A DNA stretch of 64,000 nucleotides from Guillardia theta CCMP2712 (GCF_000315625.1 NW_005434667.1:859061-923060), one strand, 5' to 3'. Shown: positions 7,849 through 40,974, numbered from the stretch's first letter. Numbers and translations: made by a program. The notes: generated by a model from the letters alone, not told the origin.

Positions 7849-9693
7849 TACTATAATGAGGGTGTGTTTGCGAGACAGATAAGGGAGTGTAATACCCGTG
7901 ATTTGATGTATGATTTACACATGGAAGTAGAGGGATATATAAAAGATAGACTGGGTGTGATGTCGGAGGAGGAGTTAGCGAGTTTGAGGGAGTTGCATGA
8001 AGTGGAGGATATAGAGATGTATTTAGTGGCAAGGATCTTGTACATAGCGTCAGATACGGAGAGGTACAAGAGTGAGTTTTCTGGGGATGTGAATAAGTTG
8101 TGGAGGAGGAAGGTGGTGATAACAACGCCCTCGATAATAGAGGGAGTGAATTATGAGGCCGAGAGGCCGATCAATACGTACTGTATATCGACATTTGCGA
8201 GGACCTTAACGCCAGATCAGAAAGTGCAGCAGTTAGCAAGGAATAGGAATTGTCAGATGTTGTTCTTTTACATAAATTATAAGTTGAAGCCGGAGAGCAT
8301 GATATATGCGGGAATGCCGGTGCATAAAGACATAGATGATTGTAGACGGACTTACAATGAGATGTGTTTAGGTAGCAATGTGTTGAATGGCATAATGAAG
8401 AAGACGGAGGATATGATAGAGATAAATAGGGAGATGAAGAATGTGGATACTGACAACTTCTGTTCGAAGGATAGTATGCACAACAAGGAATTGATGAAGA
8501 TCTTGTATAGGCAGGATACACAGATGTTGAATTATGAGCATTACTATATCAAGAATTTAGAGAGGTTAGGGATGGTGGTAATAAGGAATTACTACAAGGA
8601 GGAAAAAGAGATAAAGCGTGAGAAGAAGGATGAGGTGATCTACAATAATATGGAGGTGATGAGTTTCCTGAGGATGAGGAATATAGAGATAGAGGATGGT
8701 TTGAGAGAGATAACATATACGAAGGATGAAGTGCAAGAAATGTTGTTGAGGGAGAGGGAGAGTAGGGAGAATGAGGACTTTGATAGGATGTTGAGATGCA
8801 ATGATGTGAAGGCGAGTAGGTCGAAGGAGGAGCAATGGAGAAATAGGATCCAACATTATCTAGGGAGGGTACCTGAGAACAAGAGGGAGGAGTATATAGA
8901 GAGATATAGGGGTTTATTGATGGGTGGTTTATCGGTGAAGAGTGATATGAATGAGGCATGCAAGAGGATTATAGATCCGTTGATAGAGCACAACAAGATG
9001 GTGGCATACATGTATAGGACATCACATTTGGAGGCGATATTGAAAAACAAGATATCAGAAGACAGTCCAATGAATGGGTATATGTCATTCTATATGGATA
9101 TGTGGAGGACGAAGGAGGTGATGAGGAAGTACTTAGGTGTGAAGGATTGTTTCGATCTTGGATGTTTGGACACAGGGAGGTACAAGGATGAGGAGATTGA
9201 GATAGAAGAGGATGATATGAGGAATTATTTTGATGTGATGGTGATGGAGGATACAGAAGAGAATAGGAACAAGGAGGCATTAGCAAAGTTGTACAACAAG
9301 ATGTTAGAGGATGGAAAGATGCCAACATTTAGGAGACCTAGGATCACGAAGTATGTATTAGCGAAGAGGTTAAGTTACAAGAAGGTGGCAGAGGAGGTGA
9401 GGAGGAGGTTGGAGGGTTTGATAGTGAAACATAGATACAAGGAGCAACATATAAATGAGAATGGTGAGAAAGTGAGAGTGAATTATGCAAGATATGAGTT
9501 CGATTATGATAAGATAGGATATCATATGAAACTGTTGAGGTTGCGTTTAGAGGGATTGAATGTGTTAGAGCCGCATGTGATAGAACGATTTGAGGTGAAG
9601 GATGAAGAAATAATGTATATGTTTCATGAGATGGAAAAAAGAGCATGTAAAGCGTGGGAGAGAATGGTGATAGGAATAAAATGTAGAAAGTGA
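7849..9693 (+). pseudogene. C-terminal half of a UL9/origin-binding-protein-like SF2 helicase
   Basis: No true ATG. VVITTPSIIEGVNYE and PDQKVQQLARNRN are helicase motif V/VI-like. Motifs I-III are absent here but present in 15585-17243(-). Confidence 0.75.
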
Positions 9694-9886
9694 CTGATAT
9701 ACATATTTATGAGTATATAATATGTGATTTCCATATACCTTCGTCTTTGTAAAGGTCATACTTTCTGATAAAGGACGGTTTAGGTTCTATGGTACCAGAG
9801 TTGTATTTATTCAAGACACGATTAAGGTTATATTTTTCTTGATTAGCTTGTCTATACTGTAGTACCATATTGGTAAGGGATATAGG

Positions 9887-10020
9887 GTGTCTCCACCTCT
9901 CCCTAAGTAGGGGGGGCCGGGGGGGATATGATAGGGGGTTGAAGGTGTGTCTCCAGGGAGGGTCTTATTTTTTTAGGTATATATATACCGATTTCTAATT
10001 AAGGGGCAGGGTGGAGACAC
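9887..10020. repeat. ~130-bp dispersed element, copy 1 (GTGTCTCCACC...GGTGGAGACAC inverted ends, G-runs, GGTATATATATACC palindrome)
   Basis: Near-identical to 11737-11862 (direct) and 17785-17911 (inverted). Confidence 0.92.
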
Positions 10021-10087
10021 ATATGAGATCATCAATACAATCATTATGGAGCATATGAGAATGGTGTGATCTATGCGACTTCCTATA

Positions 10088-11671
10088 TTATTTAGGTAAC
10101 CAACGTGCAAATATGAACTGATTATAGACAGTATTTCTGACACACCATCTCTTAATGGAGGGATCCCACCAAGCTCCAAGTGTTTTGACAGTATCTTTTT
10201 CAGAGAAGGGGCATTTCAAACAGATATAAGAACCACTGCTGTCTTCATAATAATCAAAATCTTCTAGATCTTCTTCATCTTTAGGGCGTTCTGGGAATTT
10301 ATCATTGGGAGCTTTATACCAAGATATAATGTCTTCAATAGACAAGTCATATATACGTTGCTGATATAAATGTATACTGTCATAAATAATATTGAATGTT
10401 AATTTTTGAATTGTAACAGGGTGAAATAATGTAACATCTTGATCTTGAAGAAGAAAAGTGACTTTGTTTTGTTTGAGGGTAGCATAATTATTATAAAAGT
10501 TGCGAATTTTTGCAGCTTGTTTCGAATAATAAGATTTAAATTCGCATGTTGAAGTAGGTTTGTAATCATTGATAAATGGATAAGGTTCAGAGTAGTTGAT
10601 TATAAACTGTTTCATATATTTTAGGTTGGGCAGATAGTGATGAATGAATTTAAGGATTTTCTTGATTATAGAAAGGGTGTCATATTCAGTGAAGGTGAGG
10701 TAAGCATGAAACGCAGGGAATTTGCCAAGGGCATAATCCGCAATCCAATAATTATATTTACTATAATCATAATCATGGACTATATAGGAACAAAATCCGT
10801 CATCATTGAGATAGACAGCAACTCTAAAATGTTTAAAGACAGGATTGAAGAGTTCAATGAGGTGTTTATTATGTTCAATAAGATGTTCTGAATGTTTGTC
10901 AGAAAGAAGGCAATGATGATCTGATGAAAAGTGTGTGGAGGATCCTTTCAATATGTTAATAATAAGCTGATCAAGAACATCTTCATTCCAATTCCAGTGA
11001 GTTTTAGAGCCGTTTAAGAAGGTCTTCAAATCTTTCAAATCATTCAAAGGTTGATTAAGTATGCATTGCTCACATTTTTGTTTTCGAATGCAGTATAATT
11101 CCACTACAAGTTTGTTAATATTATTCAATAAGGATTTAGCGTCAAATTCAAACCATGGTTCAGGTCGACAGTCTTCACTTGTAAAATGTGAATTACATAT
11201 TTCGAATATGGCGGATATCTGAGTATCATGAACAACAGCTACATCAGCGATTTTAGTGCTATCATTATATTGAAATCTATGTTCAAGGTGGACTTGACAT
11301 GTAGAAAAATCAGGAGCCTTCCAATCGTGTATGAGATGTTTGCAAACATAGCAATTACGCATGACCTTGAATGGTAGGCATTTTTCTAAGAATTGCTTAA
11401 GCGCAATTTTAGCATCCTTGTGGATTTGTGACTCAGAAGGATTATTATAGTAGGAGCAAGGTTCATCATCTTTGTGATGTGCAAAATGAAAGACTCGTTT
11501 TTTGCCTTGGCGGAGTATTAATGTTTTGTTGCATTGAGGACAGATATACTCTTCCTTCTTGTTAGCAAGTCTTGGACAACAATATTGTCCAGTTTGTTTG
11601 TGAATAGCTGCCAAACTGTAAATATGAGACGTCATAGTCCGCACTAGTATATGTATAATATAGTTGAGCAA
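10088..11671 (-). CDS. CoiA-like zinc-ribbon plus PD-(D/E)XK nuclease protein with a C-terminal DUF5710-like motif (probable start MTSHIY)
   Basis: YICPQCNKTLILRQG..RVFHFAH and ESQIHKDAK (CoiA N-terminus); IADVAV...IFEICNSH (nuclease motifs); CPFSEKDTVKTLGAWWDPSIKRWCV (DUF5710-like). Confidence 0.75.
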   Translation of the reverse strand: MLNYIIHILVRTMTSHIYSLAAIHKQTGQYCCPRLANKKEEYICPQCNKTLILRQGKKRVFHFAHHKDDEPCSYYNNPSESQIHKDAKIALKQFLEKCLPFKVMRNCYVCKHLIHDWKAPDFSTCQVHLEHRFQYNDSTKIADVAVVHDTQISAIFEICNSHFTSEDCRPEPWFEFDAKSLLNNINKLVVELYCIRKQKCEQCILNQPLNDLKDLKTFLNGSKTHWNWNEDVLDQLIINILKGSSTHFSSDHHCLLSDKHSEHLIEHNKHLIELFNPVFKHFRVAVYLNDDGFCSYIVHDYDYSKYNYWIADYALGKFPAFHAYLTFTEYDTLSIIKKILKFIHHYLPNLKYMKQFIINYSEPYPFINDYKPTSTCEFKSYYSKQAAKIRNFYNNYATLKQNKVTFLLQDQDVTLFHPVTIQKLTFNIIYDSIHLYQQRIYDLSIEDIISWYKAPNDKFPERPKDEEDLEDFDYYEDSSGSYICLKCPFSEKDTVKTLGAWWDPSIKRWCVRNTVYNQFIFARWLPK

Positions 11672-11736
11672 GCTTTATATGAATTAACCAGAGGATATAT
11701 AGAATGATCTATACGAGAATGGTAAGGGTTTGATGA

Positions 11737-11862
11737 TGTCTCCACTTCTCCCTAAGTAGGGGGGGGGGACATGATAGGGGTTGAAGGTGTGTCTCCAGGG
11801 AGGGTCTTATTTTTTTAGGTATATATATACCGATTTCTAATTAAGGGGCAGGGTGGAGACAC
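11737..11862. repeat. ~130-bp dispersed element, copy 2
   Basis: Direct repeat of 9887-10020. Inverted identity with copy 3 extends over ~11729-11920 / 17727-17919. Confidence 0.92.
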
Positions 11863-11987
11863 ACATTATATGATGGAGGCTTGGTTGGGTTGTAAGATGA
11901 GGATGGTAAGGAGAATATATATAAGGGTCTTAAAGAAAAAATAGGAAAGCCAACAGGATGTAAATAAAATATAAGAGAGATGAGGAT

Positions 11988-12257
11988 ATGTATTCAGGGT
12001 GGTATACAGAATTTGATGAGGACTACGATGAGACATTTAGGAGGACGATACCGGTGTATCTATATATGCGTGATATCTACATATGGTTGAATATGGTAAG
12101 GGGAGATATAGGGAAGTATAGGGTGGATATAAGGGTGAATTGGAGGAGATGGAATAGATGTAGGAGGAGGGAGAGGATCCCGATGAGTATATTTCGTGTG
12201 CATGTAGGGAGGAGAGGGAGAGAGGGTGAGGTATTGAGGAGAGAACCGTTTTTATAA
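11988..12257 (+). CDS. Small hypothetical viral-like protein (89 aa)
   Basis: ATG-initiated ORF with island-like codon usage. No recognisable motif. Confidence 0.4.
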   Translation: MYSGWYTEFDEDYDETFRRTIPVYLYMRDIYIWLNMVRGDIGKYRVDIRVNWRRWNRCRRRERIPMSIFRVHVGRRGREGEVLRREPFL

Positions 12258-12484
12258 GAGGGAGTGTAACCCACGCCTTTTAGTGGGGAAGTTAAATGAC
12301 TTAGCCAGGGGATTTGTCCGAAAGTTAATTGACTAACCCCTGTAGATTTTAAATTTGGAAGAAGGTGAATAAAGGGGATATAAGGAAGGATGAGAAGCGA
12401 TGTGTGACCCACGCCTTTTAGTCCATGGGGTTCCATAAAATATTGTTGAGAAGTGTAAAAAATGTAGATAAGAGGTAAGAGTAG

Positions 12485-13840
12485 ATGTCAAAATCCGATT
12501 CGCCGGTGAGGGCAAGTGTGGTTTCTTCATTGTTGGCTCAATCGCCAACGACGGAGTATGTGGATAAGGAGTTGATAACAAAGGTGAGACTGTTTAAGCT
12601 GACGAGGGAGGAGTTTAGCTATATATGTGGAGATGAGAGAGCATTTGATATATGCATGAAGCTGATGGGCATGAACAAGAGACAGCTGAGGTCATTATGT
12701 AGGAGCATAGGGATACTATTTGAGGATGGATCGGGCGATTCGAGTGAGATTCATAGAAAGATAAATAAGAAGGGATATTCAGGATTATCATTGAGTAATC
12801 TGCCAGCAGATATGAAGGAACATATAATAAGAGAGTACATGAAGATAGTGGTTCCAAGATTATTGGATTGGATAGATTTAAAGAAGTTGGAATTTCCGTC
12901 GTTATTAGGGAATCCGAGTGAGGGCATGATATTACTGATAAAGAAGCATTTTAAGAGCAAGATAATGTTTATGACGAGATTATTGTATGATGATTCAATA
13001 GAGGATGATTATATAATTGATAAGATGACTGCAATAGAGAATCTAAATAAGAATCCGAGTGATGCGGCGATAAAGTTTTTGGATAAGTATTATGATTTGA
13101 TAAGGAGTGAAATTTTGATAGAGAACAAGAATGTGAGAAGTTTGAGATTATTTAATAAGCACCGTAATTGGGAGTCGAGTTCGGGTTCTGAGGAAGAAGG
13201 GTTAAGTTTGGATGATAAATTACCAACAACAGATATATTATCAAAATGTATTCATGATGAGATATTTGAGAAATATATAGAGAAGGACAATAGATATGTA
13301 AATCTAGGATACTTGTCAGGGAATACGAATGATCGAGCGATAAAGATAATAGAGTCATATAGAGATAGGGATTATAAGAAGAGTGAGAATAATAAGGTAG
13401 ATTGGAAGAAGTTATCGAGAAATCCATCGAATGCGGCAGTGAGATTTATGAGAAGGAATGAGAGTAAGATAGATTGGGCAGAATTAAGTGGGAATACTAA
13501 TACAGAAGCGGTAAGATTTATGATAAGTCATCCGAATAAGATATATTGGCCAGCGTTTATTTCGAATAGCAATGATGTAGCGGTGGATTACACTCTACGA
13601 CCAGAGAATAGAGCGCATATACTTGAAGTAGATGGTATGTTTTGTTTAAATTCGAATGAGAAGGCTGTAGATTGGTTGATAGAGAATAAGAGAAGACTGT
13701 CACCTTACGAATTACGTGTTTTGTCATGTAATTCAAATCCGCGAGTGATACCCTTATTGCTGGAGAGGAAAGCAGAGATAGATTGGAAACGTTTATCGTC
13801 AAATCCAATAATAATTGCTTATAGAGAGATGAGATGGTAA
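12485..13840 (+). CDS. F-box-like plus (I/V)DWxxLSxNP repeat protein (paralog of 19828-21153)
   Basis: LSLSNLPADMKEHIIREY (F-box-like); repeats VDWKKLSRNPS, IDWAELSGNTN, IDWKRLSSNP. N-terminus nearly identical to 19828-21153. Confidence 0.8.
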   Translation: MSKSDSPVRASVVSSLLAQSPTTEYVDKELITKVRLFKLTREEFSYICGDERAFDICMKLMGMNKRQLRSLCRSIGILFEDGSGDSSEIHRKINKKGYSGLSLSNLPADMKEHIIREYMKIVVPRLLDWIDLKKLEFPSLLGNPSEGMILLIKKHFKSKIMFMTRLLYDDSIEDDYIIDKMTAIENLNKNPSDAAIKFLDKYYDLIRSEILIENKNVRSLRLFNKHRNWESSSGSEEEGLSLDDKLPTTDILSKCIHDEIFEKYIEKDNRYVNLGYLSGNTNDRAIKIIESYRDRDYKKSENNKVDWKKLSRNPSNAAVRFMRRNESKIDWAELSGNTNTEAVRFMISHPNKIYWPAFISNSNDVAVDYTLRPENRAHILEVDGMFCLNSNEKAVDWLIENKRRLSPYELRVLSCNSNPRVIPLLLERKAEIDWKRLSSNPIIIAYREMRW

Positions 13841-13863
13841 ATGTGTGTTGTGAAAGGAGAGAA

Positions 13864-14628
13864 TTATTTTTGCCAAGAGATGTATTTATGATCGATATCG
13901 CTATAGCCGACGATTTGTGTGATGTATCTTTTGCCGTATCCATCGAAAGTGTAAGAGTGAGCATTTTTACCGAAGAAGATATACCAAGCCTCATCGATAA
14001 CGTTATTATTTCGGATATGAGTTTGGATAAGTTTATTAGTGCATGTGGTGGCGTGTTCGATCCATTTGGGTAGGACGGAGTGGGACATGATGTAGGCGGT
14101 GGTGTTCCAACTGATGAGAACTTTATTGATGATATCGTCAAATTTGGAGACCTTAAGGTTGGAGCCAGTGCCGAGCAATAAGAAGTGGTAGGATTGTATT
14201 CGATCGAAGAAGAGGCAGATGTGTTGATCGAGTTGTTGGAGTGGGACCTGGATATCGAAGTCATCTTCAAGGACGAGTATATTTTTGTAGCCGCGATCTT
14301 GCATGATCTGGGCGATAGCGATGTGTGATTTGCTGCAGCCGACAGTGTTTTGATCTCTTTTGGAGAGAGAGGGGTTGATATATTGGATAGCGGGGAATCG
14401 TTCAGTTTTAGAGAGAGTAGGGTCAATAATTTTTAATTGGCGAAGTGCATTTTGGTTGCGGTCGGTCCTGTGGTCAAGATTGATGTAGAAGATGCGGTCG
14501 ATTTTATTTAGGAAGTTGAGGGGTGTTTGTTGTGGTAGTTGTGTATGAATGTTTTTGAGGATGAACAATAGATTATCGATGGAGTTGTGGAGTGAATGAA
14601 AGAATTGATGAATGGATGGTTGAGGCAT
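13864..14628 (-). CDS. Glycosyltransferase family 25
   Basis: IFYINLDHRTDR, ERFPAI, GCSKSH and ILVLEDD are GT25 motifs. Confidence 0.88.
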   Translation of the reverse strand: MPQPSIHQFFHSLHNSIDNLLFILKNIHTQLPQQTPLNFLNKIDRIFYINLDHRTDRNQNALRQLKIIDPTLSKTERFPAIQYINPSLSKRDQNTVGCSKSHIAIAQIMQDRGYKNILVLEDDFDIQVPLQQLDQHICLFFDRIQSYHFLLLGTGSNLKVSKFDDIINKVLISWNTTAYIMSHSVLPKWIEHATTCTNKLIQTHIRNNNVIDEAWYIFFGKNAHSYTFDGYGKRYITQIVGYSDIDHKYISWQK

Positions 14629-14862
14629 GTATGTATGTTATGTATTCTAAAGGAAGAGGACAAAATGTTGTGTAGGGATCATGATGAAGGTTTGATTTGA
14701 TAGATATTGTAGGAGAGTTAAGAGTGTAGTGGTGTGGTGTATAGTGTATGGGAGTGTAAGGTGTGAAGAAGAAGTTTAAATAAGGGGATAAAGAGTTGGA
14801 GAGAATGTGGCTGTAAGGGATAAAGTATGGGATAGATAAAATAAAAGGGAGATGGAGAATAT

Positions 14863-15320
14863 GTATAGATCTAGTGAGGGCATGATAGTAACATGCTGCG
14901 CATGTTCGGCCAGTTTCGCTTCGCTCACAGGCCTTAGGCGACATTTATTATTTTTGTTTTAATTTTCTTACGAGAATGGTAAGGGAGATGAAGAATATGA
15001 ATATGAGAAGATTGATAGGGATATAGATAGATCTAGTGAGGGCATGATAGTAACATGCTGCGCATGTTCGGCCAGTTTCGCTTCGCTCACAGGCCTTAGC
15101 GACCCTTGTTAATTTCTGCTTAATGCTCTTACGAGAATGGTAAGGGAGATGAAGAATATGAATATGAGAAGATTGAGAGGGATGTTAGAGGGATATGTAT
15201 AGATCTAGTGAGGGCATGATAGTAACATGCTGCGCATGTTCGGCCAGTTTCGCTTCGCTCACAGGCCTTAGCGACCCTTGTTAATTTCTGCTTAATTCTC
15301 TTACGAGAATGGTAAGGAGA
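14863..15320. repeat. Three tandem ~160-172-bp repeats with GC-rich hairpins
   Basis: AGATCTAGTGAGGGCATGATAGTAACATGCTGCGCATGTTCGGCCAGTTTCGCTTCGCTCACAGGCCTTAG recurs at ~14867, ~15028 and ~15201. Confidence 0.92.
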
Positions 15321-15584
15321 AATATATAAAATATTTGTAGTATTTATAATAGATCAGAATAGAGTTAATGAAAGGAGGCAGATAATGAAGCAATTAAGGA
15401 TATTTGAACATTTTTTATGGTAATTTGGAATTTTGTATATTTTGGTCTTTAAACAAATCTATATAGATTTTTTGATGGTAGATTTTTTGATGGTTTTTCC
15501 AAAAAAACTCAAATTATGTACTTTGATTTTCCATTTTTGGTGGTAAATTGGAAATTGGTCTTTAAGGTCTTTAATACAAATACT

Positions 15585-17243
15585 ATAATACTTCCTGTAC
15601 CTTGATGATACTATCTTTAAATCTCCCCTCCTTCTCTCCTTGTAATAATCTATATCATCGTCTGTCATGTTCCCATCCATCATTATTATCTTGTCGGCCG
15701 TCTCAAACATCTTGTTCAATACATATATACACCTCAACCTTGTATTCTTGAATGTTGTCGCTGTATACAAATACTCCCTCAAACTCTTGAATTCATCCAA
15801 CACAATCGTATATCCCTTGAAATCACCACTCCACATCCTGCTTGAACAATCCTCATTCATCTGCTCCTTCACAAACTTATGCAAACTATTGCATGACACT
15901 ATCCAATTTGACTTCTTCTTTCCATCACACAATGACTTGAAAGAATCGTCCTCATAAGTCTTCACCCTCACACCAGCCTTCCCTAGATTGCTCTTTATGT
16001 CCGATATCAAATTCCTCAGATGTACCACAAATATAAAACATCTCTTGCTCTTCTTCAAGTAATCTATCACCGCTGTTGTCTTCCCCGTCCCTAATCCTGA
16101 TACTATGAATACATCCTTGTTATCCTCTAAACAAGATGACTCTATATGCTTATCCATCATCATCCTCTCGTGACTTAAAGAACCTAACTGATCCGTCACC
16201 TGTCTAAAACATCTTATCTGCTCATTGTTCAGGTTCTTGTTTACCGCACTCACCAGACAATTCGGATTCTTGTGTAGGCTTTTATCTCTCCCTATCGCAT
16301 CCATCTTCATGTCATTTAACACTTTCGAATACTCCGGATTTATACTACAATCTCCTTGCTTCGTCGTTGGCCTCTTGCTCCAGTTGTCAAATACATCCCT
16401 TATCCCCTTCTCATCATCCACTCTCCCTAATATACTCTGCAATGGCGTAAACCATCTCTTTCCCATCCTATAATCCTCATGTAAATTGTCTAATAATAAC
16501 TTTACATGCTCCTTTGATATGTCCCAATCCGCCATCTCATTGAACTTTATCATATTCATATTATTTATACTCTCATACTTCTTCAGCCTTATTGGCCTAG
16601 TTCCCTTCATGCGTTCCTTCACCTCCTTCTCATAAAACTCCTTAAAAGATCCTGGAACCTCTGATAACACATCTGACCTGAATATCACCGTCGGATTGTG
16701 ATACGGATATTCACATACATATGATATATTATCCAACAATTCTATCGTACTGTTCAACAACTTCTTGAACCCTTTCACGCTCTCAGCTTCCTTAAAGATG
16801 TACTGTTTCCCCTCACCTGACATTATCACCACCTGCGCCGCACTCTCCCACTCCTTCAATAACTCCTTCATCTCATCCGTCAATTCTATCTTGTATGTAT
16901 CATCATCTATTCTCAATGATTTTCCTATTATTCCTAACCCTGATATTGGTCTTGTTCTTATTACATTCATTGTATATGATAGTGGCTTGTTCCATCTCTT
17001 CCATGACACGCCATGCAATTTCTCTAAATCACCTAGAGCCTTCTTGTATCCTACTCCGTCTGTCCCTTTATAGATCCTCTTCGCATCCTTCAATGATTTG
17101 TATGGTCCTGTCAAACCCTCATACAACTCCTTCGACAATTCTAATGGTATCACCTTGAAACCCAATCCATCTAACCTCTTTGATAATTCTATCAAATTCT
17201 CCTTCCTCTCATTCTCTGTCCATATCGCATCTTTCAATAACAT
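15585..17243 (-). pseudogene. N-terminal half of a UL9/origin-binding-protein-like helicase (PriCT-2-like region, Walker A/B, motif III)
   Basis: SGLGTGKTT (Walker A), IVLDEFKS (Walker B), IIMMDGNM (motif III), upstream W..FDNWSKR..YS (PriCT-2-like). The tail after RYRKYY reads into non-coding AT-rich DNA. Confidence 0.82.
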
Positions 17244-17316
17244 CCCCTACACTCTTTCTATATATCATATGAACATTTCTTTATATGCTTTTTGACACAT
17301 CATTCATAAAAATAAA

Positions 17317-17649
17317 TTACTTCATCATCAATGCCTTCTCACGCTTTTGCTCTTGATACCTCTCTCGTCTCCTTGCCTTTATTCGCTCTCTCTTTTCAGG
17401 ATCCTCATACTGCTTCCTATTCATTTCTTTTACTCTCTCACGATAGTCCTCATCCATATTGTACCTTTTATTCTTGTACTTCCTTGATGATTCCAATATC
17501 CTCTTCCTAAACTCTTCATCCTCATGATACCTTCTCTTGTTGTACTCTGCTATGTACTCATATATCTCTTTTATGCTTCCATCTTCCTTCCGTCGTTGCA
17601 AATATTCCTTGTTATACAATCTCATCCACTCCTTCTCCTCATCCGACAT
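17317..17649 (-). CDS. Small charged hypothetical protein (110 aa)
   Basis: Repeated Y..RY..DEE(F/Y)R.R motifs. Co-oriented with and upstream of the helicase. Confidence 0.7.
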   Translation of the reverse strand: MSDEEKEWMRLYNKEYLQRRKEDGSIKEIYEYIAEYNKRRYHEDEEFRKRILESSRKYKNKRYNMDEDYRERVKEMNRKQYEDPEKRERIKARRRERYQEQKREKALMMK

Positions 17650-17784
17650 TCTCTCTTTCTATATTATCATATTACTCTTTATATCTCTTCAATTATACTC
17701 CTTCATTCTCAATCTTTCTCTTATACATATATTCTCCTTACCATCCTCATCTTACAACCCAACCAAGCCTCCATCATATAATGT

Positions 17785-17911: not shown

Positions 17912-18011
17912 TCATCAAAATTCTTACCGTCCTCATGTTAACTTTTTATTATTCATATTGAAATAAATACCATATCAATATAAGTATATCTTTCATATAT
18001 TCCAATAGCAA

Positions 18012-31110: not shown

Positions 31111-31216
31111 ATCTCTAAGCCACACATATATTCAATCTTTTTTATTTGTTGCGATATTTGTGCTTATGCCATTCAAAATGATAATATGTTGTATAACATT
31201 TTGAACAAGAACAAAA

Positions 31217-32338: not shown

Positions 32339-32568
32339 ATGTGTAGCATCCTATAGTAAATGTCTAAACATATCTTATATATACATCTTTTACAAAGATT
32401 GATTATAAATAATCATAGATCACAAAAAAATGCAGTAAAACATAACTAAGTAACTACTCAACAATGTTTTTATTGCTTGTTAGATATCTCCAAACACATA
32501 GAAGTTAGATAGGTCCATGGCCTAAAAATGATATTGATCTATATAAGGAAATTGATATACTATATACA

Positions 32569-32973
32569 ATGGATCCATTTGTCCAAAAGTTCAATTCTAT
32601 AGAATTTGATAAGACCATCTTAGCACCTGTCAAAGACATAATATTTGAGAGATATCTCGACATATGTCATGATGATATAAAAGAGTTCAATGACAATAAC
32701 TTCTTATGCCAGATGTGTTGTGAATGGCTGCCAAAGTCAGAGAATGGAAGGATGGATATATGTCTTGTTTGCACTGAAAACTATGTGGTATGGAGGTGCA
32801 AAAACTGTGATCATGTATTTGAAGACTGTGTGATCATAGCAAAATCAAGGCATGAGGCATATTGTGGTTATTGTTATGAATATGAGATAGATCACACATG
32901 CCCCTGCGGAAAACTTTACAAGTTAAACAAGGGTCTGAATGACAGATTCTGTTCATCAATGTGCAGCATATAA
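32569..32973 (+). CDS. Cys-rich putative zinc-binding protein (paralog of 28628-29143)
   Basis: MDPFVQKFNSI..IIFERY..IC; CPCGKLYKL...FCSSMC. Confidence 0.75.
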   Translation: MDPFVQKFNSIEFDKTILAPVKDIIFERYLDICHDDIKEFNDNNFLCQMCCEWLPKSENGRMDICLVCTENYVVWRCKNCDHVFEDCVIIAKSRHEAYCGYCYEYEIDHTCPCGKLYKLNKGLNDRFCSSMCSI

Positions 32974-33050
32974 CATAAATATAACAAAGTTCTTCTGTTT
33001 ATATCCATTTTTATAATATGTGTGATGAATCCAAAGATTAATATTGTAAG

Positions 33051-33749
33051 ATGGCATTGAAAGATGCTCTTATCACGTCGAATAAGGAGGATTTTAGTGA
33101 GGGGATCTTTGGACAATTCTTGACATGGTTGCTTGAGATATTGAATCATATGGTAACATCTAATATAATTGATGATGAAACTAGGATATATTTTGATATT
33201 CACACATTGGAGTATGATAATATCATTCCTTTAATTATAGTTCCTCACAAGCATTATTTATTGCCAGCAACCGATATACATAGAATAGATGTGTCAAGCT
33301 ACAAGATAGCCAATGATTGTGAATTCCCTTTCTGTGAGGAAAGCTTCTATACAGCAAATCATATTTTTAATAAGTTCTTTGATTTCTCAGATTCTATTAA
33401 AACAAATATACCATCTATAGATCGCTCAACATCGGTTGGAATCCATTTTCGTGGATCGGATAAAAATTTTGATATAGGTCAGGCAAATCCTATATCAGAT
33501 GAAGAATTCATTCTAATTGTTCAAGATTTTCTTAACAAGAATAGTAAAATTAGATGCATATACTGTTGTAGTGATGAGCAACTGTTCATAAACAAGATGT
33601 TAGATCGATTTGGAGCATCCTATGATGTTTTGCAGTATCAGCAGAAACAAGCAAACAATACCAACAGAATGGGGTTCTTTAGATGTGCTAAATCACTCCC
33701 TAAAGAACAAAGGGATTCATACATATCTCAAACCACTCTTCCTCAGTAA
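33051..33749 (+). CDS. NodZ/GT23-type fucosyltransferase-like protein, probably 3'-truncated
   Basis: SVGIHFRGSDK (motif I) and IYCCSDE (motif II). Motif III is not visible, and the tail overlaps a convergent ORF. Confidence 0.65.
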   Translation: MALKDALITSNKEDFSEGIFGQFLTWLLEILNHMVTSNIIDDETRIYFDIHTLEYDNIIPLIIVPHKHYLLPATDIHRIDVSSYKIANDCEFPFCEESFYTANHIFNKFFDFSDSIKTNIPSIDRSTSVGIHFRGSDKNFDIGQANPISDEEFILIVQDFLNKNSKIRCIYCCSDEQLFINKMLDRFGASYDVLQYQQKQANNTNRMGFFRCAKSLPKEQRDSYISQTTLPQ

Positions 33750-34253
33750 ATGAGTATGCACATTTATCTATGATAATATTGAGCAAGCCCTCATTCATCG
33801 TGTCAAGCAAATTGAATTGTGTGCGCTCCAGCTTATCTGATATATGTGTCACATTCTCTTGAATGAACTTCAAATATCTCTTAAGATCTAATCTATTGAG
33901 AAAATTGTTTATGTCCAAAGGGCTTGTGATGTGGCATTTAGATATATCAAGCAAATCCACAGCATCAGGATTTTTGTTAAACCATATAGAATCGTGCACA
34001 ATCTTTTCTGGATAGGCCTTCAGAATATCTAACGCATTCTCATTCTTTGATAACTCACTCCAATAAACATTGGACAGGTTGTCTCTCAAGATATCGATAG
34101 CACCCTTGTTTGCTGAAAGCACCTTCCAATCAATCTCACCCAAATTATCCTTCAACAATTCAATTGCATCTTCATCATCCTTTGCTGAAAGCACAGACCA
34201 ATCTATAATATCAAACCTGTGCTTGATGATCTTAGCATATATCTTAGTGCTCT
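33700..34253 (-). pseudogene. 3' part of an IDWxxLSxN repeat-protein gene interrupted by the Fanzor transposon
   Basis: IDWSVLSAK, IDWKVLSANK and VYWSELSKNE repeats. Joins 37526-37730 in frame (VEFNAL-KSTKIYAK) to give a 252-aa protein. Confidence 0.88.
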
Positions 34254-34331
34254 TAGAGTTGTTTGCGTTTTTATGTTGGGAAGCGAAGCTTGCCACAGGC
34301 AACACTTATTTTTGTACTTGAATATGTAAGG

Positions 34332-35392
34332 ATGTATTCTAGAACTTATCCGGCTGGAGAGGTTATCAAGGCTCTTGAAGTTTATAACAATGTAAAGAGT
34401 CTTTCTCTCAAACTTTCATTGAAGTTTGAGAGTGGAAGGCTTCATACATCACCGGCATTAGCAAATCCACCATTCAGAGATGGTGGTCAAACCTTAGAAT
34501 GACTATCAGACGCAAAGACAAACGCAAACGACGTTTCAAGCGCCGTCATAAATATCCTCATCTAAATGATGTCATAAAGCACCTCTTCTATCAAAACAAA
34601 GACATCGCCTTCATGCATCTAAAGCAAATCCAATATACGTTGAACCTATCTTATGACATCTCTCCATCATTGACATCTCTTTATCGAGTCCTAAAACAAT
34701 CTAAGATATCAAGGCGTCGCGACTTTGTCGCTTTTTGCCGACCGCCAAAGGCGGAGGCAAATCGCTTCAGCATCCACCATATCAATCCAACAAATCCAAG
34801 TGATAGAAAGGCCAGGTTTTCAGACTTCAAGGCCTCGATAGATCCATTATTGAACGACAATATCGTTTGTCTGGATGAGACCTCATTCTGCAATGTTGGC
34901 AACCCTTTTTATGGCTACTTCCCCAAGGGAAGACAACCCAACGCAATCAAGGTATCAAAACGTGAAAGAGTATCATTGGTCATGGCTGTTCACTCTTCTA
35001 TTGGCATTGTTTCTTACAACCGTGTAAACAAGGCCTTTACAAAGGCTTCATTCTTAGTTTTTTTATAGGGTCTTATTCCTAAGCTTCCTAAGAGCACAAA
35101 AGCCATCCTTATGGATAATGTGGCCTTCCATAGGTCTAAGGAGGTTGTTGGCTTGTTGGAACGGCATAAGCTTGTTCCTCTTTATATCCCTCCGTACTCG
35201 CCAAGATGCAACCCCATTGAGGAGGTCTTCTCTCTGTTGAAGAGAGCCTTCCGAACCAAGACAACAAAGAAGTGTCTGGCAGACCGTATTGAAGAGGCAA
35301 TCGACATCATAAAAGGATATAAGGATTTGGATCTTAATTATAAGCATACAAGAGACTATGTTAGAGCGGAATGTCAAACATTAGGATTGTAA
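34332..35392 (+). pseudogene. IS630/Tc1-like DD34E transposase, inactivated
   Basis: HTH (KASYITGISKSTIQRW), LDETSF, MDNVAFH and PPYSPRCNPIEEVFS, with 34 residues between the second D and E. Frameshift at a hairpin (34404-34432) and an in-frame TAG at 35066-35068. Confidence 0.9.
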
Positions 35393-37443
35393 AACGAAAG
35401 GCGAAGGGCTTCTTCAAGTGTGAGGACCTAGTCACAATCAAGGATGCTGTCAAGGCAGCTCATAGGATCATGTCAGATGCGTCCATACTCGTCCGGTCAT
35501 ATTATCTGCGATGGTTCCAGAGCTCATATCCCCTTGATTCAGATGACAAGGAACTTGAGCTTGAGCACTTCCATATATCCATGGCCTGCAGCATAGTCCA
35601 GGGTATAACAAGGCCTCCAGTCCGTGGTGTTGGTCCTGAACAATCTGTCAAGATAGACGTCTTCAATGACATGTTAGATGAGTATAAGAGGCTGTACGAG
35701 CGTGCTCCAAATGATAAAGAGAACGAAACGGACCTCTCTCTATCGCATGTCTTAGCATATTCCATCGACAACCTTCTTACCGCGTATAAAAACAACATCG
35801 AAGCCCATTTCTCAAAATATGTCAAACGCTTCATCCGATGTGATATGTTGGCTAAGGGCTTCAATAAGTCTGAGGCAAACAGAGTGGCGGCAATATATAC
35901 CAATGCCTATATTTATGACTCATCCCTCGACCTGGAACCAGACTTTATGGAAAGATTAGGCCTTGAGGCAACAAGTTATTCATCTCTATTCCCCTCTAAG
36001 ATAAATAAGGGCGGTTTTCCAAGGGTCTATGACCTGAAGGCCAACCCTTGGGTCTATCTTCCAAAGATGGTCATGATAAATCAGGCCTTAGAGACAGACT
36101 TCTCTTCTGTAGAGCATAAGGAGAGGAGGCTGCTCAATCCACTGCCCTTCTATTCATCGTTTGTTCCGATGCACATACGGATTGATACATCCGGCTTATC
36201 GCAGCTGCTGATGACTAAGGATAGGCTTGATGATTTCAAGAGATCTTATCTTGCTGAGTTTGGAGTAAGTCTAAATATAAAGAACAAGGGTGATATGCTA
36301 GCAAGTTTTGAGAAGATCTTTGGCCGGAAGGCAACATCCAATAGAGAGGCCGGATTGTATGCAACAGAGATGTGGAGCTTCTTGACAAACCTGAAGACAT
36401 GCCGTCAATGGAAGGAGCTTGATGGGGTTGTTCGTAAGAACGATCCCAAGGGAACACAATGGATGTTTGACAATGCTGTTGTAACGGACGGTGTTTCAAT
36501 CTCATTCCAGGTGATCGATAACAGCATGTTTGGACGGAAGGCCTTCTCTGGCAGGAAGAAGAGGGTAGCATGTCAGGAGGCCAATGATGAAGAAGATAGC
36601 AAGCAGGTAACAAGAGAAGAGCTAAAGACATCGAAGCTCTTGGGATGTGACCCTGGGAAGAGAGACATCCTAGCAATAACAGATGGCATAAAGACTATCT
36701 GTTACACCAAGGGGCAGAGAGACATGGACACGCATAAGACAATAAGGTTGAGAACCAGTCTGAAGAGGCGCCGAGGCTGCGGCCTAGAGGAGTATGAGAC
36801 ACAGGTGATGAACCGGTTCCAGAAACGGTCATGCCATCCTGAGATGTTTCGACGCTATGCCTGTTCCAGGAAGAGGATGGAACACATGCTGCTTGAATGT
36901 TATTCTCATCCAGTCTTTAGAGAGTTCAAATTCTTGGTTTACAACAAGACTAAGAGCTCCGAACATAGGTTCATGCATAGGGTGTTGGAAACATTCAAAC
37001 GGCCGCAAACAAACCTGAGCAAGGCGAGGTGTGCGTCAGGAGTTATGCGTATGAATGCCTTGAAGGAGGTCCAAAGGCATGGAGATATCATTATAGGGTG
37101 GGGCAACTGGGGAAAGAATCCAAACGCGCTACGATGCTCGGCAGGACCAACCCCAGGCATTGGAATAAGGAGAAGGTTTGAATCGCTGTTCAAAACAACA
37201 ACAGTGCCAGAACACTACACCTCCCAAGAATGTCCGAGTTGTAAGGGACGATGCCTAAGAAAGGCAACTGGCAACCCGATCATGAGACACCATCTGCTTC
37301 GTTGTACAAACGATAGTTGCTGTAGCAGGTGGTGGAATCGGAATGTAGCCGGGGCGTTCAACATCCTAACAAGGCTGTTGGATGGACAAACACTATCCGG
37401 TAACGAAACTACCGGAGACGGGTTAGGAGGTGACGACCTCTAA
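35371..37443 (+). CDS. Fz1: Fanzor1 RNA-guided DNA endonuclease (eukaryotic TnpB/Cas12 homolog), 690 aa
   Basis: TDGVSIS (WED), LLGCDPGKRDI (RuvC-I), IIIGWGNWG (Gly at the canonical Glu position), VPEHYTSQECPSC (shifted Glu and Zn finger), LLRC..C..WNRNVAGAFNI (RuvC-III with Asn). Located in a mariner-type element. Confidence 0.95.
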   Translation: MSNIRIVKRKAKGFFKCEDLVTIKDAVKAAHRIMSDASILVRSYYLRWFQSSYPLDSDDKELELEHFHISMACSIVQGITRPPVRGVGPEQSVKIDVFNDMLDEYKRLYERAPNDKENETDLSLSHVLAYSIDNLLTAYKNNIEAHFSKYVKRFIRCDMLAKGFNKSEANRVAAIYTNAYIYDSSLDLEPDFMERLGLEATSYSSLFPSKINKGGFPRVYDLKANPWVYLPKMVMINQALETDFSSVEHKERRLLNPLPFYSSFVPMHIRIDTSGLSQLLMTKDRLDDFKRSYLAEFGVSLNIKNKGDMLASFEKIFGRKATSNREAGLYATEMWSFLTNLKTCRQWKELDGVVRKNDPKGTQWMFDNAVVTDGVSISFQVIDNSMFGRKAFSGRKKRVACQEANDEEDSKQVTREELKTSKLLGCDPGKRDILAITDGIKTICYTKGQRDMDTHKTIRLRTSLKRRRGCGLEEYETQVMNRFQKRSCHPEMFRRYACSRKRMEHMLLECYSHPVFREFKFLVYNKTKSSEHRFMHRVLETFKRPQTNLSKARCASGVMRMNALKEVQRHGDIIIGWGNWGKNPNALRCSAGPTPGIGIRRRFESLFKTTTVPEHYTSQECPSCKGRCLRKATGNPIMRHHLLRCTNDSCCSRWWNRNVAGAFNILTRLLDGQTLSGNETTGDGLGGDDL

Positions 37444-37549
37444 AACCTAGAACTTAGAGTGCAAAAACGCCATTACGATTGTGATGCCTATTCAAGGGTG
37501 TCCCAAGTGTAAAAAGAAAGCACTCTAAGAGCATTAAACTCTACTCTGT
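37391..37549 (+). ncRNA. Predicted Fanzor omegaRNA: scaffold ~37391-37529 overlapping the ORF end, guide ~37530-37549 from flanking DNA
   Basis: Hairpins TCCGGTA/TACCGGA (37396-37416) and GGTT..GAGGT/ACCTC..AACC (37421-37447). Long-range stem CTTAGAGTGC (37453-37462) / GCACTCTAAG (37520-37529) closes at the element end. Exact RNA ends are inferred. Confidence 0.75.
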
Positions 37550-37730
37550 CAATGTTCTCAATAAGGATGTCTGAAGCGTTCTCATTGCATGATAGATTGT
37601 TCCAAGCCTTGTCGGTCATCTCATCGATTTTTATATTTATGATTTTCATAGCAGTCGGATTATTATTCAAACAAAGACCTTCTATGTCAAGTTTGCTCTC
37701 ATCAACCCATGGTAATAGTCTATAAGACAT
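37526..37730 (-). pseudogene. 5' part of the repeat-protein gene interrupted by the transposon
   Basis: MSYRLLPWVDESKL matches the paralog N-terminus MEDYKLLPWINVDDL (25839). Continues in frame at 34253 once the element is removed. Confidence 0.88.
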
Positions 37731-37776
37731 ATCTTATCCTCCTTAAGTATTTCCTGTTGTATATAAAGAAAAATCT

Positions 37777-40608
37777 TTGATATTATTTTTACCTATATTT
37801 TATCTTGATGCTCATGTAAAAAAATTCTTGGATAGAAATACTATAATTTTAGATAGCATACAATCACTAGAGGTGGAAAATGATTGCATGTTACTTCATA
37901 CTTTCAAGCAGTGCGCATCACAGGAAATTCAAAGCTTTATGGTCGATTCCTCTAATAATATTCAGTATAATACTCTCCTTAAGCTAAGCAATGAAGAAGC
38001 ATCATCTCAACAGCTTTTGGAAGCATCTCAACAATCTTCAGAAGTATCTCAACAAGAGCAGGCTCCATCCTCAACAAAGAAGACAGCTAAGAAGATCCAG
38101 CAACAACACCAGGCTCCATCCCCAACAAAGAAGACAGCTAAGAAGATCCAGCAACAACACCAGGCTCCATCCTCAACAAAGAAGACAGCTAAGAAGATCC
38201 AGCAACAACACCAGGCTCCATCCTCAACAAAGAAGACAGCTAAGAAGATCCAGCAACAACACCAGGCTCCATCCCCAACCAAGAAGACATCTAAGAAGAT
38301 CCAGCAACAACACCAGGCTCCATCCCCAACCACGAAGACAGCTAAGAAGATCCAGCAACAACAGCAGGCTCCATCCCCAACCAAGAAGACATCTAAGAAG
38401 ATCCAGCAACAACACCAGGCTCCATCCCCAACCACGAAGATAGCTAAGAAGATCCAGCAACAACAGCAGGCTCCATCCCCAACCACGAAGACAGCTAAGA
38501 AGATCCAGCAACAACAGCAGGCTCCATCCCCAACCAAGAAGACATCTAAGAAGATCCAGCAAGAACAACAAGAGCAGGCTCCATCCTCAACCACTATGAT
38601 AGCTAGGACGATGCAGCAATCAGAGATTTTACCTGAAATGCTACAAAATTCTTCAAAACTACCTACAAAAGATACAAGAAAGAGAAAAGCTCGAACATAT
38701 ATTCTACAACACAAATATGATAAGCATCCGCAACAAAAAGTTGATAAGGCTAGGATAACTCTTCCTAAGACAAAACAAAAAAAGGTTGATGATGAAAAGC
38801 AAAAGGAACAGGGTGAAGAAGAAAAGGAGGAAGAAGGAGAGCAGGATGAAGAGGAAGCAGAAGATGATGAGGAAGCAGAAGAGGATCAGGAAGATAGTCA
38901 AGAGGAGGAGGAACAAGGAGACCAGGATGAGGAAGAAGAAGCAGAAGAGGATCAGGAAGATAGTCAAGAGGAGGAGGAACAAGGAGACCAGGATGAGGAA
39001 GATAGTCAAGAGGAGGAAGAAGAAGGACAGCAGGATGATGATGAAGAAGAGGAGCAAGATGATGAGGAAGCAGAAGAGGATCAGGAAGATAGTCAAGAGG
39101 AGGAAGAAGAAGGACAGCAGGATGATGAAGAAGAAGAGGATCAGGAAGATAGTCAAGAGGAGGAAGCAGAGGAGGATCAGGAAGATAGTCAAGAAGAGGA
39201 GGAACAAGGAGACCAGGATCAGGAAGATAGTCAAGAGGAGGAAGAAGAAGGACAGCAGGATGATGATGAAGAAGAGGAGCAAGATGATGAGGAAGCAGAA
39301 GAGGATCAGGAAGATAGTCAAGAGGAGGAGGAACAAGGAGAGCAGGATGAGGAAGAAGAGGAGGATCAGGATGATGAGGAAGCAGAAGAGGATCAGGAAG
39401 ATAGTCGAGAGGAGGAGGAACAAGGAGAGCAGGATGAGGAAGAAGAGGAGGATCAGGATGATAGTCAAGAGGAGGAGGAACAAGGAGAGCAGGATGAGAA
39501 GGAAGCAGAAGAGGATCAGGAAGATACTCAAGAGGAGGAGGAACAAGGAGAGCAGGATGAGGAGGAAGCAGAAGAGGATCAGGAAGATAGTCAAGAGGAG
39601 GAGGAACAAGGAGAGCAGGATGAGGAGGATGAGGATGAGGATGAAGATGAGGATGAGGATGAGGATGAGGATGAGGATGAGGATGAGGATGAGGATGAGG
39701 ATGAGGATGAGGATGAGGATGAGGAAGACGATGAGGATGAGGATGAGGATGAGGAAGACATTCGTAAAATCTTAAGGAAGCGCAGAAAGTTAAACCTTAA
39801 GGAGGAAGCTGAATACAAACAGAGAATTGCAAAAATACGGGGTTCTCTATCAAGAGAACAATATGCCTCTAAACATGTTGGAAAATATCATGTGATAAAG
39901 TTGCAATCGAGGAGAGACAAGGAATTGATTGTTATTAAATCAAAAAAGACAGGAACAAAACACAAGGTCAATCTCCTTGATGGATTTGGTGTTCAACACA
40001 TAGGCCCTTCAAGATCCTTAGGCAAGCATAAGCTTGGAGTGTTTGAATGTGGCATGGAAAATAAGAGTGATAGTACAGTTTATAACAAGAACAATGATCA
40101 AACATATATTACAGGAGGGATTGAGGAGCTTGAATATTTCGCAAATAACAAGGATGTAATATATCCTACAGATAAAGATGATATAGCATTTGACAGCAGG
40201 AATGGGATCGATACAACAAAGGTATTATGCAGAAACATCCCAGTGACATTGGATGACATTCTTGCTTACTTCAAGTCTTATGTGAATAGCAATGTATTTA
40301 TGCAAGGTCTTGTATATTCCGTACATTCTACCTTTTCTGAGGTTAAAAGATTTGTTCGTCGCAAACATGAGAGATACATAACATTTCCAATCACATTCAT
40401 TGATGTCATGACAGATGAGAATGAGAAATTTGTTTTCAAGGCACTGCTGTGGAAGAAGAAGAAGAATTCTAGATATCTTGGTGCAAGGGCAGGTTTTCTC
40501 TTACCAGTATTGTTCATAGTATTGGATTTAGAGGGATTTGTGACATTGTCGAGGATCTGGGATATGTCATCATCTGTGATGGTGAGTGTTTCTTCAAAGT
40601 CATTCTGA
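37777..40608 (+). CDS. Low-complexity protein: 17-aa QQQHQAPSPTKKTAKKI repeats, a very long Asp/Glu tract and a C-terminal globular region; start uncertain, last ~45 aa probably read-through
   Basis: Open 943-codon frame; 51-bp tandem repeats at 38058-38590; acidic repeats at 38790-39760. Confidence 0.65.
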   Translation: MILFLPIFYLDAHVKKFLDRNTIILDSIQSLEVENDCMLLHTFKQCASQEIQSFMVDSSNNIQYNTLLKLSNEEASSQQLLEASQQSSEVSQQEQAPSSTKKTAKKIQQQHQAPSPTKKTAKKIQQQHQAPSSTKKTAKKIQQQHQAPSSTKKTAKKIQQQHQAPSPTKKTSKKIQQQHQAPSPTTKTAKKIQQQQQAPSPTKKTSKKIQQQHQAPSPTTKIAKKIQQQQQAPSPTTKTAKKIQQQQQAPSPTKKTSKKIQQEQQEQAPSSTTMIARTMQQSEILPEMLQNSSKLPTKDTRKRKARTYILQHKYDKHPQQKVDKARITLPKTKQKKVDDEKQKEQGEEEKEEEGEQDEEEAEDDEEAEEDQEDSQEEEEQGDQDEEEEAEEDQEDSQEEEEQGDQDEEDSQEEEEEGQQDDDEEEEQDDEEAEEDQEDSQEEEEEGQQDDEEEEDQEDSQEEEAEEDQEDSQEEEEQGDQDQEDSQEEEEEGQQDDDEEEEQDDEEAEEDQEDSQEEEEQGEQDEEEEEDQDDEEAEEDQEDSREEEEQGEQDEEEEEDQDDSQEEEEQGEQDEKEAEEDQEDTQEEEEQGEQDEEEAEEDQEDSQEEEEQGEQDEEDEDEDEDEDEDEDEDEDEDEDEDEDEDEDEDEEDDEDEDEDEEDIRKILRKRRKLNLKEEAEYKQRIAKIRGSLSREQYASKHVGKYHVIKLQSRRDKELIVIKSKKTGTKHKVNLLDGFGVQHIGPSRSLGKHKLGVFECGMENKSDSTVYNKNNDQTYITGGIEELEYFANNKDVIYPTDKDDIAFDSRNGIDTTKVLCRNIPVTLDDILAYFKSYVNSNVFMQGLVYSVHSTFSEVKRFVRRKHERYITFPITFIDVMTDENEKFVFKALLWKKKKNSRYLGARAGFLLPVLFIVLDLEGFVTLSRIWDMSSSVMVSVSSKSF
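38058..38590 (+). repeat. 51-bp coding tandem repeat, ~10 copies
   Basis: CAGGCTCCATCC(T/C)CAAC(A/C)A(A/C)GAAGACA(G/T)CTAAGAAGATCCAGCAACAACA(C/G) units. Confidence 0.95.
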
Positions 40609-40974
40609 TCAGGCGGTTGGAAATTGATGTTTTGGTGAACTGAATTGATGATGTTGTCGACATCGAGGGATGGTTCATTGTTGTTATTGTTGGTCATGGG
40701 TGATGTGAATGAGCTGAAGATTCCAAAATCGTTCAGAAAAATTCAAAAATACGGGGGAATTTGTTGAATTTTCAAAACGGAACCGAGGCGATGCTGAGTT
40801 TATACCTTTATTAGTAAAATTATTGCCTTTCTGTTGTAGCATTCTAGGTTCTTTAACTTGTATGTTTTTCTTTCTCTTTACAAGTCGGTGTCCAATACAA
40901 CTATACTACACTGCTATAATACTGCTATTATACTACTAATAATACTACCCTCCGTGCTAGTCGAGGGTAGCAAA

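Follow-up and report, generated by a model that had tools for sequence, protein, structure and literature searches.

A virus-like island holds the GtFz1 transposon

The 64,000-nucleotide stretch of the Guillardia theta CCMP2712 genome analyzed here (GCF_000315625.1, NW_005434667.1:859061-923060; the window) encodes GtFz1, a Fanzor1 nuclease whose gene lies in an IS630/Tc1-type transposon, which in turn interrupts a gene of a low-GC, virus-like island of 33 kb. A sequence-only reading had described this island as an endogenized fragment of a virus resembling NCLDV (nucleocytoplasmic large DNA viruses). For comparison with sequencing data, reads of four runs were mapped against positions 5000-21200 at the left side, and further mapping at the transposon used 30300-37900. 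Run X1 is DNA possibly from the same strain as the assembly and so tests the assembly, not the species; X6 is a metagenome containing DNA about 97-98% identical to flank and island alike. The main features, with positions counted from the first letter of the window, are as follows.

7848-40947, no strand: low-GC virus-like island, bounded by GC change points; left junction crossed by an X1 contig
7852-15587, no strand: inverted segment of 7.7 kb, both breakpoints ACTATAAT
7852-9693, plus strand: C-terminal half of an origin-binding-protein-like superfamily 2 (SF2) helicase, 40% identical to Hanusia phi protein P0001 residues 377-870
15586-17243, minus strand: N-terminal half of the same helicase, with a predicted primase region and ResIII/Herpes_ori_bp (Pfam)
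33700-37730 (37730-37526 and 34253-33700), minus strand: tryptophan-repeat gene interrupted by the transposon, with an empty allele in X6
34256-37525, plus strand: IS630/Tc1-type Fanzor transposon of 3,270 bp, delimited by the empty-site joint and loose ends
34332-35392, plus strand: DD34E transposase, broken; DDE_3 match, NF033545 (IS630) below cut-off, D-to-E spacing 34
35371-37443, plus strand: GtFz1 Fanzor1 nuclease, 690 amino acids, residues 2-690 identical to PDB 9cer chain P
37391-37543, plus strand: omegaRNA, with the published scaffold at 37391-37529 (PMC10432273, supplementary files 4 and 5) followed by a flanking-DNA guide

Both island edges, 7847 and 40947, are maximum-likelihood GC change points, with a GC fraction of 0.382 inside versus 0.537 in the left flank and 0.540 in the right, and CpG observed/expected ratios of 0.51 versus 0.76 and 0.69. 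Twenty-five main open reading frames (ORFs), chosen among 91 ORFs of at least 60 amino acids in 5500-43000, cover 81% of the island as 25 ORF intervals. The sharp compositional boundaries and dense unspliced genes noted from the sequence alone were both borne out. The same reading saw ordinary spliced host genes on either side, and this stood in part: a fragmented host gene lies further out (NMD3 pieces in three separate frames at 49313-50212), but the nearest flanking genes are unbroken ORFs (5980-7659 on the left; 40975-41499, with its inverted copy at 42017-42724, on the right).

One X1 contig (5215-9964) spans the left junction at a depth of 79.8, showing 0 substitutions and a single gap. 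X1 contigs over the left junction and the inner inversion breakpoint had depths of 80-91, similar to the flank, while the other X1 island contigs listed ranged from 75 to 144, with no excess of free copies apparent. Raw DNA reads of run X15 covered the left-junction bin like the neighboring bins. The left junction is genuine, the island is joined to host DNA on this side, and for the left of its two junctions the proposed integration is confirmed by reads. Runs of N in the window are confined to 57742-58422 and 63278-63377 and affect neither island junction. In RNA run X14 (about 6% of the run read), 39 reads fell on the 16.2-kb mapped stretch and 9 on the 7.6-kb one, with host ORF 5980-7659 likewise near zero, so these counts are no evidence of silencing; run X8 placed no reads, possibly a false negative.

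The transposon is flanked by a TA duplication (34254-34255 and 37526-37527) and has imperfect inverted ends of about 26 bp, matching at 14 of 26 positions ungapped or, if one gap is allowed, at about 18 of 26 as judged by eye. X1 contigs span both transposon ends with no differences, and X1 also contains one other right flank. In X6, an empty-site contig joins 34253 to 37527, 4 contigs diverge before 34253 and 8 behind 37528, internally deleted copies are present, and summed depth reaches up to 540 inside the transposon versus 10-40 outside. Together these data define the ends of the element, place its TA duplication in a TTAA target, and show further copies as well as an empty allele. Its removal in silico leaves a 252-codon frame of the tryptophan-repeat family with no internal stop; with the X6 empty allele, this places the Fanzor element inside an island gene, as proposed, and supports the nesting of host genome, virus-like DNA, transposon, and Fanzor. 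A 13-bp repeat at 34247 and 37533, considered as the transposon ends, was rejected, the X6 empty allele showing that the palindrome belongs to the target gene.

Two lesions break the transposase, an inserted hairpin at 34405-34432 and a stop in frame at 35066-35068, so this copy is unable to move by itself; the stop is absent from other copies in X1 and X6. The 28-bp hairpin has perfect arms of 11 bp, and the arm tested has no other copy in the window. Supplements of Saito et al. 2023 (PMC10432273) list the same locus, and supplementary file 8 of that paper contains a second G. theta copy that has the same stop, lacks the hairpin and, judged by eye, has the same ends in T/TA...TA/A. Also by eye, the two copies share a near-identical middle stretch as well as the transposase stop, with the Fanzor visibly more diverged, a pattern that would be expected from gene conversion. 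The flank of the second copy contains what we take, by eye, to be a TVpol/D5-type helicase gene, and the sequence suggests that this copy may sit in a Polinton-like virus (PLV). Two intact 690-amino-acid relatives of GtFz1 from ENA assemblies (P0143 and P0145), 93% identical, are natural variants for enzyme work.

Target site and a proposed homing mechanism

The published target-adjacent motif (TAM) of GtFz1 is TTAAN (PMC10432273). The target of the transposon, T/TA/A (the duplicated TA with a single base of flank on either side), equals this TAM, and the divergence points in X1 and X6 retain T before and A after the element, indicating that other insertions share the same target. The empty site reads TTAA, and the filled right end reads CTAA. 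No TTAA followed by the native guide at fewer than 5 mismatches occurs in the window. In the X6 empty allele, TGAA stands in place of TTAA (one contig, depth 8), and a Fanzor-resistant escape variant is one possible explanation of this allele.

We infer the following mechanism from sequence. A DD34E transposase would excise the element and insert it at T/TA/A. The omegaRNA would be made from the right end of the element, with flanking DNA as its guide. GtFz1 would then cut sites without the element, where TTAA is present, and spare the filled site, which reads CTAA; repair from a filled copy would restore the element, producing a homing drive between virus genomes present together in one cell. 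A restorative-homing model is described in PMC13565253. For GtFz1, transposition, cutting of the native substrate, and repair from the filled copy are all putative steps. Because target and TAM are the same, the homing model is directly testable with the already purified enzyme.

An inversion splits the helicase gene at the left edge

The ORFs at 7852-9693 and 15586-17243 are halves of one gene, split by the inversion. The N-terminal half is 40% identical to residues 35-331 of H. phi P0001 and 49% identical to a second H. phi protein, P0004; P0001 alone covers both helicase halves, as does P0004, and more distant relatives carry Prim-Pol or PriCT_2. A 2,309-bp X6 contig connects 7857 with 15590, the two lying on opposite strands, and has about 60 extra letters at 7888; the H. 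phi proteins align with a 20-residue gap that matches about 60 bp missing near this position. To the left of 15.5 kb GC skew is near +0.5, and to the right it is near -0.5; once the segment is flipped, skew becomes continuous and runs at about -0.2 to -0.6 over the first 11 kb, followed by an uneven fade to near zero. The X6 join, the H. phi alignments, and the skew together identify the left island edge as an inversion breakpoint and put the original end near 15585. The edges proposed from the sequence alone are therefore real change points in composition, but the left one lies inside the helicase gene. At 19346-19702, third-position GC skew is opposite to that of the neighbors on both sides, which suggests a second small inversion.

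In X6, where it may lie at a different chromosomal place, the helicase gene is intact. Of the X6 differences listed in the C-terminal half, 17 of 25 were silent versus 25% expected (binomial p = 6e-6), as were 14 of 16 listed in the piece at 7888-8765. Because the helicase differs from its sister copy mostly at silent sites, the copies probably diverged largely while the gene was functional, pointing to an element whose donor lineage was recently replicating.

Gene content and promoter

Pfam matches at E <= 0.01 were obtained for 9 of the 25 main ORFs. Paralog families, another feature of the sequence-only reading, were recovered as a tryptophan-repeat family of five island genes (24-57% identity; those at 12485, 19828, 25839, and 26915, plus the gene at 37730 that is interrupted) and two Cys-rich paralogs (28568 and 32569; 35% identity). 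For 6 of 21 genes, the octamer AAAAATGA stands 25-45 bp upstream; the island has 7 copies of it and the flanks have none. A 7-base form, AAAAATG, stands upstream of 8 of 21 genes, compared to a shuffle mean of 1.05, with 0 of 1,000 shuffles reaching 8. Within the window, the motif is restricted to the island, but it is not the private promoter that had been claimed, since it equals the early-promoter octamer proposed for Aureococcus anophagefferens virus (AaV) (PMC5917014). The remaining features are as follows.

9863-10032, 11712-11923, and 17724-17934: dispersed repeat of 150-210 bp, three copies, 88-96% identical
10088-11635, minus strand: CoiA_N and DUF5710 protein, Pfam above cut-off
12485-13840, plus strand: tryptophan-repeat protein, paralog of 19828-21153 (57% identity, family alignment)
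13864-14628, minus strand: glycosyltransferase family 25 (PF01755, E = 9e-6)
14855-15317, no strand: set of three direct repeats with a spacing of about 165 bp, close to where the original left end is inferred
19828-21153, minus strand: tryptophan-repeat protein, 63% identical to ENA relative P0092
22044-22577, plus strand: Cys-rich protein of 18-residue repeats (54-bp DNA repeats), no Pfam match
22743-23426, minus strand: DUF2738/DUF5871-like protein, by Atlas clusters
23495-25648, minus strand: HECT-type ubiquitin ligase-like protein (PF00632, E = 3e-4 to 9e-4, below cut-off)
25839-26834, plus strand: tryptophan-repeat protein, by family identity
26915-28582, minus strand: tryptophan-repeat protein, by family identity
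31217-32338, plus strand: possible histone-fold repeat protein, a weak match (C-terminal PF00808, E = 0.002, below cut-off)
37888-40608, plus strand: low-complexity protein of 906 amino acids with 51-bp tandem repeats and an acidic tract, no family match

The three-copy dispersed repeat is non-coding, has short inverted ends, and resembles a miniature transposon or an origin; it had no match among viral contigs. Upstream of the Cys-rich repeat gene, 21227-22047 contains three or four repeats of about 250 bp that are non-coding and diverged. The DUF2738/DUF5871-like protein presumably binds single-stranded DNA. An ORF at 33051-33749 ends inside the tail of the opposite-strand repeat gene and had no Pfam match; its motif resembles that of a fucosyltransferase. 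The histone-like protein has an 86% identical paralog on another G. theta scaffold, and its structural model (predicted local distance difference test score, pLDDT, 36) gave no match in a fold search. Rfam had no match in 7000-42000, and the window contains no tRNA.

A near-perfect inverted duplication (40994-41685 and 42013-42705; 693 bp, 99% identical) adjoins the right edge of the island, where a gene with three Zn2Cys6 domains is present as head-on copies (40975-41685 and 42013-42724). This duplication may be a scar of the same rearrangement. Farther out, the right flank has three copies of a 69-bp period repeat at 42931-43110, and at the far left of the window positions 1-1145 have a lower GC fraction (0.45) and two ORFs, one of which (612-1145) is a weak PipA-family match (E = 3e-4, below cut-off).

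Origin of the island

We consider it probable that the island is a hallmark-free, Imitervirales-like giant-virus fragment joined to the chromosome, with a helicase split by inversion and a gene interrupted by the IS630/Tc1 transposon that bears GtFz1. Ancestry in the Nucleocytoviricota is likely, judging from the promoter, the Atlas clusters, and a viral contig, and the fragment probably derives from near one end of a virus genome. Both proteins queried in the Atlas returned Nucleocytoviricota clusters first, each with a low recognition score. For 22743-23426, all six rows listed were virus clusters (0.92-0.94), Nucleocytoviricota being the commonest; for 10088-11635, the first cluster was Nucleocytoviricota (0.93) and the following ones were bacterial. 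IMG/VR contig L001 encodes, alongside VLTF3, PCNA, and an NCLDV capsid protein, a 30% identical relative of the tryptophan-repeat protein at 25839. Foldseek matches of the helicase include many giant-virus origin-binding helicases, a lead only given a model pLDDT of 48. Island genes have paralogs on two further G. theta scaffolds, at 63% and 86% identity, and these, together with divergent X1 contigs, indicate that sister islands exist. In Table 1 of PMC5294986, G. theta has a VLTF3 of Mimiviridae type, and the transcriptomes listed as containing NCLDV core genes include that of H. phi.

Several results weigh against a giant-virus donor. By Pfam, the NCLDV hallmark families (capsid, PolB, A32, D5, and VLTF3) matched 0 of the 25 main ORFs, and the island has no gap of at least 1 kb able to conceal such a gene; further small island ORFs were equally without hallmark matches (0 of 5), and the sole GxxxxGKS/T match among island ORFs sits inside the N-terminal helicase half. 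Every helicase relative above 31% identity was a cryptophyte entry (H. phi or G. theta), and the distant relatives included plasmid CyRepA1, the best family match at a score below cut-off, and herpesvirus proteins. The tryptophan-repeat family search returned 39 hits without taxonomy. Among seven scans of viral contigs, five were blank (Fanzor, transposase, the repeat pair, and two DNA motifs), one found two repeat-family loci, and the helicase scan gave five loci with distant, weak CyRepA1-like matches, one of which (L005) resembles a bacterial plasmid or prophage; two of two metagenome scans were blank. The right junction at 40947 stands as in the assembly, the reads having been checked at the left one, and the homing drive is a proposal from sequence.

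Best hits of the genes searched, expected to be viral, were divided: they were viral first for both Atlas queries but cryptophyte first for the helicase and the histone-like protein. Of the claimed giant endogenous viral element (GEVE) of an NCLDV-like virus, what stands is an integrated virus-like island of likely Nucleocytoviricota ancestry; what does not is membership by marker genes, which is not established. Since hallmark genes are absent, the helicase relatives are cryptophyte, and other donors are possible, we do not file the island as a GEVE and prefer the name giant-virus-like island.

One such donor would be a cryptophyte-specific element, capsid-less and about 30 kb long, that replicates with a primase-helicase of its own and uses giant-virus promoters, making the island a large transpoviron-like satellite and not a piece of a giant virus. 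The replicase family, confined to cryptophytes at close range with several paralogs in G. theta and H. phi, would suit such an element, as would the purifying selection on the replicase and the 63-86% identical paralogs of other island genes elsewhere. When the inversion is undone, a short inverted similarity links the two island ends, and ACTATA stands at all three junction sites, but the similarity is weak (78 of 4,976 random island pairs score equally high) and was chosen after the fact. No long terminal repeats were found at the island ends, Pfam and NCBIfam profile scans found no integrase or recombinase in the island besides the nested transposase, and the fading of GC skew is seen from just one of the two ends. 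In its repeat proteins, HECT, and glycosyltransferase, the cargo of the island resembles what giant viruses carry in their variable regions. Although fusions of primase and SF2 helicase are known as the replicase of some cryptophyte PLVs (PMC12220804), we judge a satellite origin to be unlikely. A broader version, in which an undescribed and still-active family of capsid-less, approximately 30-kb cryptophyte elements runs under giant-virus promoters and the GtFz1 transposon homes, TAM matched, between them and PLVs, is a speculative idea to which we give little credence.

Two other viral donors were weighed as well. G. theta is listed with capsid homologs of mirusviruses, clade E03 (PMC10827195), the island has no capsid gene that would decide the realm, and the modeled helicase fold would be common to herpesviruses; a mirusvirus in place of a nucleocytovirus nonetheless seems improbable, given a promoter octamer described from a virus of the Mimiviridae clade (PMC5917014) and Atlas clusters that, though of few members, are labeled Nucleocytoviricota. 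Portal, terminase, and HK97 capsid had no match in the island in Pfam and PHROGs, searched without mirusvirus-specific profiles, and a fragment need not carry them. A degenerate PLV is very unlikely. The size of the island is within the 14-40 kb of PLVs, G. theta has PLVs, cryptophyte PLVs contain fused primase-SF2 helicase (Prim-S2H) replicases (PMC12220804), and the second Fanzor copy lies in DNA that is PLV-like by eye. Against this, sequence profiles of Pfam, NCBIfam, and PHROGs detected no jelly-roll capsid, packaging ATPase, or protease, terminal repeats and an integrase were likewise not found, and the early promoter and cargo genes are those of giant viruses. Hardly any weight falls on a chimera in which free virus DNA was attached to a host scaffold: the near-perfect inverted duplication beside the right junction and read coverage of the left junction only would allow it, but the X1 contig crosses the left junction without substitutions at flank depth, the X15 bin is covered like its neighbors, and neither junction contains N. 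A rearranged and interrupted giant-virus fragment remains the origin that we prefer.

Timing of the transposon insertion

Both reference copies of the element lie in AT-rich, virus-like DNA, and for this reason the evidence leans toward a virus-borne element. The inference is weakened by the density of TTAA, which is fourfold higher in the island (2.87 per kb) than in the flanks (0.73 per kb). The empty allele in X6 is 93-96% identical and may come from a sister island. Virus-mediated spread of Fanzors, which the sequence-only reading had suggested, is thus favored as far as the carrier is concerned, and insertion may, as that reading had said, have come before or after integration.

Comparison with known systems

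GtFz1 is one of few Fanzors with solved structures, and its original description took the apparent lack of repeats and transposase as a hint of a role that differs from TnpB's (PMC10432273). The locus looks instead like an ordinary cut-and-paste element whose target equals the GtFz1 TAM, and it places a reference-genome "algal" Fanzor in virus-like DNA. It also gives signs of a large DNA virus or satellite that was recently replicating in cryptophytes, no description of which was found in the literature searched. In the searched sources, both the island and the transposon of GtFz1 were undescribed, while Repbase, subscription journals, and some supplements may hold an annotation. Guillardia does not appear in the main text or two supplements of Jiang 2023, and Table S3 of PMC10711439 lists the GtFz1 protein without comment.

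The two layers of the locus, a giant-virus relic in an alga and a virus-borne Fanzor transposon, are each of a known kind. The Punuivirus GEVE of Chlamydomonas reinhardtii CC-2937, with Fanzor families A to C (bioRxiv 10.1101/2024.09.03.611062), likewise consists of giant-virus DNA in an algal chromosome and combines Fanzor1 with an IS630-Tc1-mariner transposase, TA duplications, and non-autonomous derivatives. According to the same source, it is complete at 617 kb, with inverted repeats of 10-15 kb and virions, whereas the island described here is 33 kb, hallmark free, and rearranged, with no long terminal repeat. The virus-borne Mariner-Fanzor1 elements PGv-1 and HMa-1, described in 2013 (PMC3627910), also pair a mariner-type transposase with Fanzor1 beside a TA duplication, in DNA of giant viruses or in eukaryote contigs that are virus-like. 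PGv-1 differs in having an extra GIY-YIG nuclease, and in the case of GtFz1 the target site can be compared with a known TAM.

As with the AaV early promoter, the octamer AAAAATGA stands upstream of genes, in most cases with a T behind it (PMC5917014). The likeness shown is one of promoter octamer, and a motif of 8 bases cannot assign a virus family. The PLV cluster C2 Prim-S2H of Rhodomonas lacustris (PMC12220804) similarly joins a primase to an SF2 helicase in a cryptophyte element, but R. lacustris PLVs have capsid genes and terminal repeats, and the likeness of the helicase to theirs is one of architecture.

The closest comparison is with GtFz1 itself (PDB 9cer; PMC10432273, PMC11423790), which is the same protein from the same locus, and the published omegaRNA and TAM fit the right end and target of the transposon. 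Saito et al. stated that the locus seems to be without inverted repeats and a clear transposase, and a file of that paper marks features at the left end of the element and at the hairpin (PMC10432273). In contrast, both inverted ends and a transposase, albeit broken, were found here, in a virus-like setting that the consulted passages of the GtFz1 literature do not mention. What this locus adds is a left island edge that is an inversion breakpoint splitting a helicase and the placement of GtFz1 in an IS630/Tc1 transposon whose target equals its TAM.

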